From Escherichia coli (GTDB lineage: Bacteria; Pseudomonadota; Gammaproteobacteria; Enterobacterales; Enterobacteriaceae): DNA of 64,000 nt. Below, in pieces: positions 29,993 through 30,852 of the stretch. How positions within the stretch are numbered: position 1 is the first letter of the stretch; each line of letters opens with the position of its first letter. Below the pieces are notes generated by a model, which saw nothing but the letters and a program-made list of their open reading frames with translations, did no database searches and was not told the origin of the DNA. Where the stretch lies: assembly GCF_003334815.1 (NCBI RefSeq), contig NZ_QOWO01000003.1. One strand, 5' to 3'. Made by a program: the position numbers and the translations under genes.

Positions 29993-30038
29993 ACAATAGC
30001 TCTCTTTTTTTGAATATTGTTTTCTAAGTGACAATTAG

Positions 30039-30082
30039 CTTGCGACGTGCCGCAAGAAAGATCAACCATCTGGTTGGTTGAT
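30039..30082. promoter_or_regulatory. candidate operator palindromes in divergent SDR/TetR promoter region
   Basis: cttgcg-N6-cgcaag (30039-30056) and atcaacca-N6-tggttgat (30061-30082). Confidence 0.35.
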
Positions 30083-30204
30083 ATGCGATAGTGATCACAG
30101 GACATTTGATAACTTGATGAAAGTACAAGTTTTTATCCTTTTTACTGGAGCTTCTAATTAATCGGGTTAAGATAGTTATCTTGAAGAGGTCGTGGGGAAG
30201 CGTT

Positions 30205-30852
30205 ATGTATCTTGATACCAGCAACGTACAGAGCCTGAAGGAAAAGCTGCTGTTATGCGCGGTTAATGAATTTGCCGAATATGGTTATGAAGGGGCCAGG
30301 GTCGATAATATTGTTAAGGCTGCGGGGTGTAGTAAACAGACGGTTTATCATCACTTTGGTAATAAAGAAAATTTATTTATTGAAGTACTGGAATATACCT
30401 GGAACGATATTCGACAAAAAGAAAAGGCCCTTGATTTCTCAGATTTTCCGCCACAAAAAGCCATTGAGAAAATTATTGATTTTACATGGGATTATTATAT
30501 TGCTAATCCCTGGTTTTTAAAAATTGTGCATAGTGAAAATCAAAGTAAAGGTGTGCATTATGCAAAATCACAGCGTCTCTTAGAAATTAACCATGCGCAC
30601 TTGCAGTTAATGGAATCCTTATTGGATGAAGGGAAGAAACACAATATTTTTAAGCCAGATATCGACCCATTGCAGGTGAATATTAATATTGCTGCGCTTG
30701 GCGGATATTATTTGATCAACCAGCATACGCTTGGCCTGGTTTATCATATCAGTATGGTTTCCCCCCAGGCACTGGAAGCCAGACGTAAGGTCATCAAAGA
30801 GACAATCCTTAGCTGGCTTTTGGTTGACCCTTCATCTACCGCGCACGAATAA
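30205..30852 (+). CDS. TetR/AcrR-family transcriptional regulator
   Basis: 215 aa from ATG at 30205 after GGGGAAG; N-terminal HTH ([26 protein letters not shown]); strongly AT-rich codon usage. Confidence 0.75.

Follow-up and report, generated by a model that had tools for sequence, protein, structure and literature searches.

The window analysed here is 64,000 nt of Escherichia coli chromosome (contig NZ_QOWO01000003.1), spanning rpsF-rplI … ytfB-fklB-cycA. An accessory island on the minus strand, located between rplI and ytfB, contains an eight-gene catabolic operon that encodes a short-chain dehydrogenase/reductase (SDR), a TIM-barrel enzyme, an enoyl-coenzyme A (CoA) hydratase, a CoA-transferase, a flavin adenine dinucleotide (FAD) flavoprotein and a TRAP transporter. 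Divergent from this operon lies ytfA, the gene of a TetR-family regulator, and the two are separated by 212 bp (29993-30204). This control region contains a strongly conserved palindrome that is very probably the binding site of YtfA on the operon promoter, and it adjoins a published site for the regulator CRP.

The regulator and the limits of the control region

The SDR gene starts at ATG 29992 and not at TTG 30034 of the longest open reading frame (ORF), as indicated by the RefSeq annotation, an N-terminus (MKSTRPVAVITG) that is conserved across loci and an upstream Shine-Dalgarno-like AGAGAG. An earlier note on this DNA, made without database searches, had used the TTG and arrived at a divergent region of 170 bp, which is wrong. 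The same note had recognized a TetR-family regulator facing a catabolic operon, and this is borne out. Residues 19-61 of YtfA match Pfam TetR_N (3e-14), the TetR-type helix-turn-helix, and residues 83-201 match Pfam TetR_C_29 (4e-30), the all-helical C-terminal domain for ligand binding and dimerisation. Residues 8-70 are matched by many TetR structures, and the nearest full-length solved relative is the uncharacterised 3npi (8e-24). No functional study of YtfA or its operon was found in the literature searched.

A conserved palindrome on the operon side of the control region

For comparison we used 14 further loci of 7-20 kb each, in which a YtfA relative lies beside the same five enzyme genes. 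Loci were gathered by a peptide-pattern genome scan, which yielded 10, and otherwise by exact-protein look-up. The set includes other E. coli alleles, E. whittamii, E. albertii, Citrobacter, Klebsiella spallanzanii, Salmonella, Lelliottia, Entomohabitans and Leminorella (at a different chromosomal site), as well as three metagenome contigs and a second, diverged Salmonella copy that neighbours a transposase gene. Regulator identities lie between 58% and 99%, and several of the genomic contexts are unrelated.

The palindrome is an inverted repeat of two 8-nt arms and a 6-nt spacer, ATCAACCA-N6-TGGTTGAT (arms 30061-68/30075-82). Its core, AACCA-N6-TGGTT, is found exactly once per locus in 14/14 loci that have a YtfA orthologue and the operon, always in the divergent region, and is absent from K-12 and from four loci with only remote TetR homologues. 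The 64-kb window contains it once, against 0.05 occurrences expected. The core lies 67-74 nt from the SDR ATG in all loci, and 135-356 nt from the ytfA ATG. In Entomohabitans, an insertion of ~215 bp sits between the operator and ytfA.

Across loci, 13/24 operator columns are invariant. Among the 11 enterobacterial loci, 4/23 columns vary, compared with 81-94% in the flanking intergenic segments, and the operator is invariant across deep E. coli allele classes that are 79-85% identical. The only regulator gene linked to the palindrome in every genomic context is ytfA, and the DNA-binding region of its product is almost invariant among orthologues, which fits the invariant operator. At one AT-rich metagenome locus (L020) the operator is present twice, with the additional copy immediately downstream of the -10.

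The repeat structure by itself proves little. Of the dinucleotide shuffles of the intergenic region, 4% contained an inverted repeat whose arms reached 8 nt or more with a spacer of up to 12 nt, and 14% one with arms of 7 nt or more. The 8-6-8 repeat alone is thus just mildly unusual and arms of 6 nt are not unusual. The substitution pattern is more informative: the five inner pairs are fixed, and where the three outer ones break, no compensating change is seen. It is therefore the sequence and not the pairing that is conserved, which points to a dimeric DNA-binding protein. In silico, the element behaves as a palindromic operator near a regulated promoter and co-inherited with the regulator, as for a TetR repressor, and we infer that YtfA is the protein that binds it.

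Two GATC Dam sites are present in this region, one at the operator edge and inside the predicted -35 (30060-30063) and one centre-right in the CRP box (30094-30097). The former is kept in 14/16 operator copies. Dam methylation state could affect binding.

Predicted promoters and a CRP box

The left arm of the operator encompasses a predicted -35 hexamer of the operon, TTGATC. It occurs in 15/15 loci (as TTGATA in one and TTGTTC in another) and is followed by exactly 17 non-conserved bases and then by a second hexamer, which reads CAAGCT, CATCTT, CATTTT, CATCGT or TAAGTT (15/15). Conserved hexamers on either side of a variable 17-bp spacer characterise sigma-70 promoters, and the weakness of the operon hexamers fits activator dependence. 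Transcription is predicted to start near 30030, which would put the centre of the operator (30071.5) at -41.5 and that of the CRP box at -61.5. An AATATT near 30013-30018 was also considered as operon -10 and rejected, being too near the ATG and having no -35 at a workable spacing.

The CRP box directly to the right of the operator was overlooked in the earlier note. On its own the motif carries no significance in the 64 kb, where 1.85 occurrences are expected, but a CRP-like box is found at the same position in all loci. The 16-mer is a high-confidence CRP target in chromatin immunoprecipitation sequencing (ChIP-seq) of enterotoxigenic E. coli (ETEC) H10407 (PMC4287617). H10407 has the same island and an identical CRP-box 16-mer. 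A second CRP-like box, TGTGATGAACTTCAAA, is located at 19323-19338 between yjfY and rpsF and is likewise listed as a CRP ChIP-seq target in this strain.

On the other side of the control region, the predicted ytfA -10 has the forms TATGAT, TATAGT or TATAAT elsewhere. In every locus it precedes the ATG by 27-38 nt, and the distant loci also have a TGn. The predicted ytfA transcription start is near 30180.

The other two inverted repeats

The earlier note had put forward three inverted repeats in the divergent region as plausible operators. All three exist, the third with coordinates 2 bp off those given (arms 30169-74/30177-82). Only the repeat at 30061-30082 holds up as a probable YtfA operator, being conserved and co-occurring with the regulator. 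The first, CTTGCG…CGCAAG, is perfect in the allele class of the window only. Its right arm is lost in E. coli E69, Z1322, EC21Z-147, EC71 and SCPM as well as in E. albertii and E. whittamii, and it was rejected as an operator since it is broken in these other E. coli alleles and Escherichia species.

The third repeat, AAGATA…TATCTT (30169-30182), overlies the ytfA -10 hexamer and is not kept as a repeat except in part of the Escherichia and Citrobacter alleles. Conservation at this position is confined to the TAnnnT of the -10, and the repeat was rejected as a YtfA operator. In E. albertii and Citrobacter (at L003, L005 and L014 positions), AAGAT/ATCTT changes to ATGAT/ATCAT, an apparently compensated pair that is possibly due to chance. 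Other E. coli alleles read ATGAT/ATCAC or worse.

Table 1. Features of the ytfA control region and the adjoining island, in window coordinates
Feature	Position	Strand	Basis or remark
Predicted YtfA operator GATCAACCATCTGGTTGGTTGATA	30060..30083	.	Conservation, fixed spacing
Predicted operon -35 TTGATC, inside operator left arm	30060..30065	-	Conserved spacing
Predicted weak operon -10 CAAGCT	30037..30042	-	A at position 2 and T at position 6 invariant (A54, T58 in alignment A3)
CRP box TGCGATAGTGATCACA, centre 30091.5	30084..30099	.	9/10 match to TGTGA-N6-TCACA
Predicted ytfA -10 TAAGAT	30168..30173	+	TAnnnT invariant in alignment A3
Inverted repeat CTTGCG-ACGTGC-CGCAAG, arms 30039-44/30051-56	30039..30056	.	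In variable promoter spacer, not conserved
Full-length ytfA, TetR-family regulator, 215 aa	30205..30852	+	Pfam, RefSeq, K-12 comparison
SDR, first operon gene, 263 aa	29201..29992	-	NCBIfam PRK12745 1.5e-125; RefSeq; synteny in all loci
Xylose-isomerase-like TIM-barrel protein (Pfam AP_endonuc_2), 280 aa	28349..29191	-	
Enoyl-CoA hydratase/isomerase family protein, 258 aa	27563..28339	-	
Fused family-I CoA-transferase, 513 aa	26012..27553	-	NCBIfam FadX-like 2.8e-114, under curated cut-off
FAD_binding_2 flavoprotein, fumarate-reductase/aspartate-oxidase superfamily, 693 aa	23934..26015	-	
TRAP transporter genes (DctQ, DctM, DctP-type binding protein), distal operon genes in Escherichia	21069..23937	-	

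A model of dual control

We propose that the divergent control region is built around a single YtfA operator over the operon -35 and an abutting CRP box, a model derived from sequence comparison to which we assign a probability of about three in four. A YtfA dimer on the palindrome would block sigma-70 region 4 as well as the productive arrangement of CRP with the C-terminal domain of the RNA polymerase alpha subunit, and the eight-gene operon would stay off. A ligand, most likely the transported carboxylate or a CoA thioester derived from it, would free YtfA from the operator, and cyclic AMP (cAMP)-CRP could then activate the weak operon promoter. The regulator gene itself would have a separate promoter, and autoregulation via the operator is improbable. 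The earlier note had the palindromes control both the operon and its regulator. The operon side of that proposal is supported, with the operator ~70 nt from the operon start, but autoregulation of ytfA is not supported since the operator keeps its distance to the operon start, varies in its distance to the ytfA ATG and lies ~100 bp upstream of the ytfA -10.

Several observations weigh against this model. Binding, footprint, transcription-start or expression data for YtfA were not found in the literature searched. The operon promoter agrees with 6/12 consensus positions in E. coli, which is below the threshold of the consensus scan, and its assignment comes from conserved spacing alone. The published ChIP-seq peak centre (4940903) is ~190 bp from the motif (4941093-4941108, NC_017633.1), looser than ideal. 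Furthermore, the 11-sequence alignment has an invariant TG at 30118-30119, 26.5 bp to the right of the CRP centre, and across loci a TG is found again at 24.5-26.5 bp from this centre. This geometry could fit an extended -10 of a CRP class II promoter directed towards ytfA, with a start near 30133, and CRP may thus also, or instead, serve ytfA. The hexamer that follows this TG is poor in Escherichia. Lastly, the operator contains an overlapping 6-2-6 register, CAACCA-TC-TGGTTG, offset by 2 bp, and both registers fit the invariant bases about equally well. We slightly favour 8-6-8 for the putative site because the variable positions sit in its centre.

Alternative explanations

Divergent autoregulated arrangements are common in the TetR family, and the three repeats could represent two or three YtfA operators (30039-56, 30061-82, 30169-82) that control both the operon and ytfA in the classical manner. 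All of them are real, and the third overlaps the ytfA -10 and start region and is kept with 4-5-bp arms in several Escherichia and Citrobacter alleles, including the one apparently compensated change. However, even within E. coli most alleles lack the first repeat, and the third bears no sequence resemblance to the conserved operator, is imperfect in several E. coli alleles and is absent in Salmonella, Klebsiella, Leminorella, Lelliottia and the distant loci despite the same helix-turn-helix. The Entomohabitans insertion moreover parts ytfA from the operator, and we consider the multi-operator arrangement unlikely. We give similarly little credence to the idea that the palindrome is bound by a protein other than YtfA, such as RutR or another regulator of ACCA/TGGT sites, or is conserved merely as part of a promoter while YtfA acts elsewhere. 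Its left arm does hold the predicted -35, and it matches the RutR consensus at 9/14 positions, including the two most important ones, which is comparable to weak RutR ChIP targets. Yet the TTG and CAA flanks of the RutR box are unmatched, no promoter element explains the invariant right arm GTTGGTT, and no regulator gene other than ytfA accompanies the palindrome throughout. The extra copy downstream of the -10 in L020 is furthermore typical of a dedicated repressor. A function as a nucleic-acid hairpin, in the form of a leader or attenuator or of a terminator-like structure on the minus strand, is very improbable. A terminator scan flags the palindrome on that strand, and the 34-mer folds at -9 to -10.5 kcal/mol (z ~ -3.3), but the palindrome lies upstream of both predicted transcription starts. 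It has only 3 GC pairs, the trailing CTTTCTTGCG has no uninterrupted T run, and there is no upstream gene to terminate. A structured cis-regulatory RNA or intrinsic terminator was accordingly rejected on the absence of covariation across the loci, of any Rfam family match and of a U-tract.

The last alternative concerns the origin of the regulator gene, which the earlier note had judged by eye to be markedly AT-rich and of separate evolutionary origin. The per-gene computation that it called for confirms the composition. The guanine-plus-cytosine (GC) content of ytfA is 39.4% (GC1 49.5, GC2 28.7, GC3 39.8), compared with 50-55% in the five operon enzyme genes, ytfB and cycA, and AAA, AAT, ATT and TTT account for 17.7% of its codons versus 7-13% in neighbour genes. 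The segment 30001-30650 is the second-lowest-GC 650-bp stretch of the window (36.6% against a mean of 51.5% with a standard deviation of 4.2, or ~3.6 standard deviations below). The regulator could thus have been acquired separately and recently, its low GC mainly marking xenogeneic silencing by H-NS. This reading is favoured by the sharp boundary at which GC changes by 12-18 points and by the three-part compositional mosaic of the E. coli island, in which the TRAP genes have 40-44.5%, the enzyme genes 50-55% and the control region together with ytfA 37-39%. A published promoter table also flags H-NS in the K-12 yjfZ/ytfA spacer (PMC3946193). On the other hand, ytfA orthologues of 32-44% GC lie beside operons of 52-58% GC in 13/14 loci, down to 59% regulator identity, and in 13 loci the divergence of the regulator parallels that of the five enzymes. 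The shift extends to every codon position and to the amino-acid composition. We conclude that the GC gap is old and maintained and that there is no sign of a recent regulator graft; recent separate acquisition, as well as low GC as chiefly a mark of silencing, is an improbable account of the gene.

The island, its carriers and the K-12 remnant

The 212-bp control region was found by blastn in 3134/5426 complete E. coli genomes (~58%), in allele classes of 100% to ~79% identity. Carriers of the island include BL21-derived strains, ATCC 8739 and ETEC H10407. K-12 has lost the island, and yjfZ occupies its place. What remains are a 102-bp piece of the SDR gene and the 3′ 402 nt of ytfA (pseudogene b4205), which correspond to window positions 29802-29903 and 30450-30852 (K-12 locus L002, 5588-6096). 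Homology restarts only at 30450, so the K-12 ytfA is without residues 1-81, which include the helix-turn-helix, and without the entire control region. K-12 has neither the operator nor the target operon. As the K-12 ytfA is a 3′ fragment of a TetR-family gene, the gene in the window represents full-length YtfA. A 2025 preprint on a CRISPR interference screen handled ytfA as a partially characterised regulator even though the K-12 copy is this truncated remnant.

The transporter genes are exchanged in Escherichia, which has TRAP genes where other genera have an MFS gene. The MFS transporter replaces TRAP in Salmonella, Citrobacter, Lelliottia, Leminorella and the distant loci, and the distant loci add a flavodoxin gene. 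Frameshifts occur in the CoA-transferase gene or ytfA of single strains (L001 5114-6654, ATCC 8739; L022 1399-2045, E. coli Z1322HEC0009), and two database orthologues (P0063 and P0067) look frameshifted too. The island appears to be decaying in certain lineages. At its right-hand end, ytfA and ytfB are convergent and their coding ends overlap by 17 bp (30836-30852).

Remote YtfA homologues (34% identity) are encoded in an alphaproteobacterial metagenome-assembled genome (L009 13045-13869) and in Halomonas socia (L010 5923-6711), within a few kb of a TIM-barrel gene whose product is 48% identical. Both loci are without the SDR, hydratase, CoA-transferase and flavoprotein genes, and the regulator and TIM-barrel pair may be an ancient core. 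The Halomonas cluster has neighbouring ORFs of 348, 173 and 500 aa, sizes that would fit a tripartite carboxylate transporter. An NCBIfam search of these three ORFs matched no family.

The pathway under control

The enzymes have few informative relatives. The structures nearest to the TIM-barrel enzyme are 3qc0 and 3ju2 (SMc04130; 1e-84), whose function is unknown, and the FAD flavoprotein has no solved relative at E <= 1e-10. NCBIfam provides only generic names for the operon enzymes. The TRAP binding protein is closest to DctP proteins from structural genomics (E ~1e-70), several of which presumably bind hexuronates, a lead only. The combination of a transporter with a CoA-transferase, a hydratase, an SDR and a flavoprotein points to a hydroxylated carboxylate that is processed as its CoA ester.

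We speculate that the switch guards an undescribed CoA-dependent pathway for a hydroxylated carboxylate, for example a sugar acid or cyclitol acid, whose carriers include over half of complete E. coli genomes along with Salmonella, Citrobacter, Klebsiella and others. YtfA could then sense a CoA-thioester intermediate. The regulator gene and control region would have been kept at low GC by long selection and not by recent transfer; one such role would be that of an H-NS nucleation site, a third control layer on top of YtfA and CRP. Taken jointly, these proposals are tentative, and it is doubtful that all of them hold.

YtfA is among the few TetR-family regulators of E. coli for which no function is known, and the operator, CRP box and promoter elements provide a precise and testable model for it. 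They also explain the origin of the K-12 pseudogene. Furthermore, the operator-promoter fragment is usable as a reporter to find the inducer, and hence the substrate, of an uncharacterised eight-gene pathway found in the majority of complete E. coli genomes.

Comparison with known systems

Bacillus FadR (1vi0/3whb) and KstR2 (4w97) are among the few solved TetR proteins that align with YtfA past the helix-turn-helix, to about residue 155. They are also reminiscent of YtfA in that the pathway it would regulate makes CoA thioesters. However, their similarity is weak (E 1e-5 to 1e-11) and leaves part of the ligand domain uncovered, and the KstR2 name carried by some Salmonella orthologues is an automatic label.

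RutR belongs to the TetR family like YtfA, and NCBIfam and PDB hits for the N-terminal region of YtfA include RutR models. The RutR box, TTGACCAnnTGGTCAA (PMC2475637), and the YtfA operator are both palindromes with an ACCA-NN-TGGT core. With nine of the 14 consensus positions matched and different flanking triplets, the YtfA site does not qualify as a member of the RutR regulon, and its better-fitting register has 8-bp arms and a 6-bp spacer. The C-terminal domain (TetR_C_29) and the target operon differ as well, RutR being tied to pyrimidine catabolism.

The arrangement resembles TetR/tetO and QacR in that regulator and target are divergently transcribed and share a region with a palindromic operator of ~22 bp. 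In contrast to these systems, the single predicted operator is anchored to the target promoter at a distance of ~100 bp from the ytfA -10, and the target is a catabolic operon, not an efflux gene, that would also be under CRP control.

The proposed promoter logic is that of lac. A predicted weak sigma-70 promoter has a CRP box ~61.5 bp upstream of its predicted start, the class I geometry of lacP1, and would be combined with a substrate-specific repressor, so that expression of the operon would need inducer and low glucose. The repressor is of the TetR family and not LacI, and its putative operator covers the -35 between CRP and the -10 and does not lie at +11, as measured from the predicted start. 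The switch itself is a conventional repressor-plus-CRP dual-control promoter.

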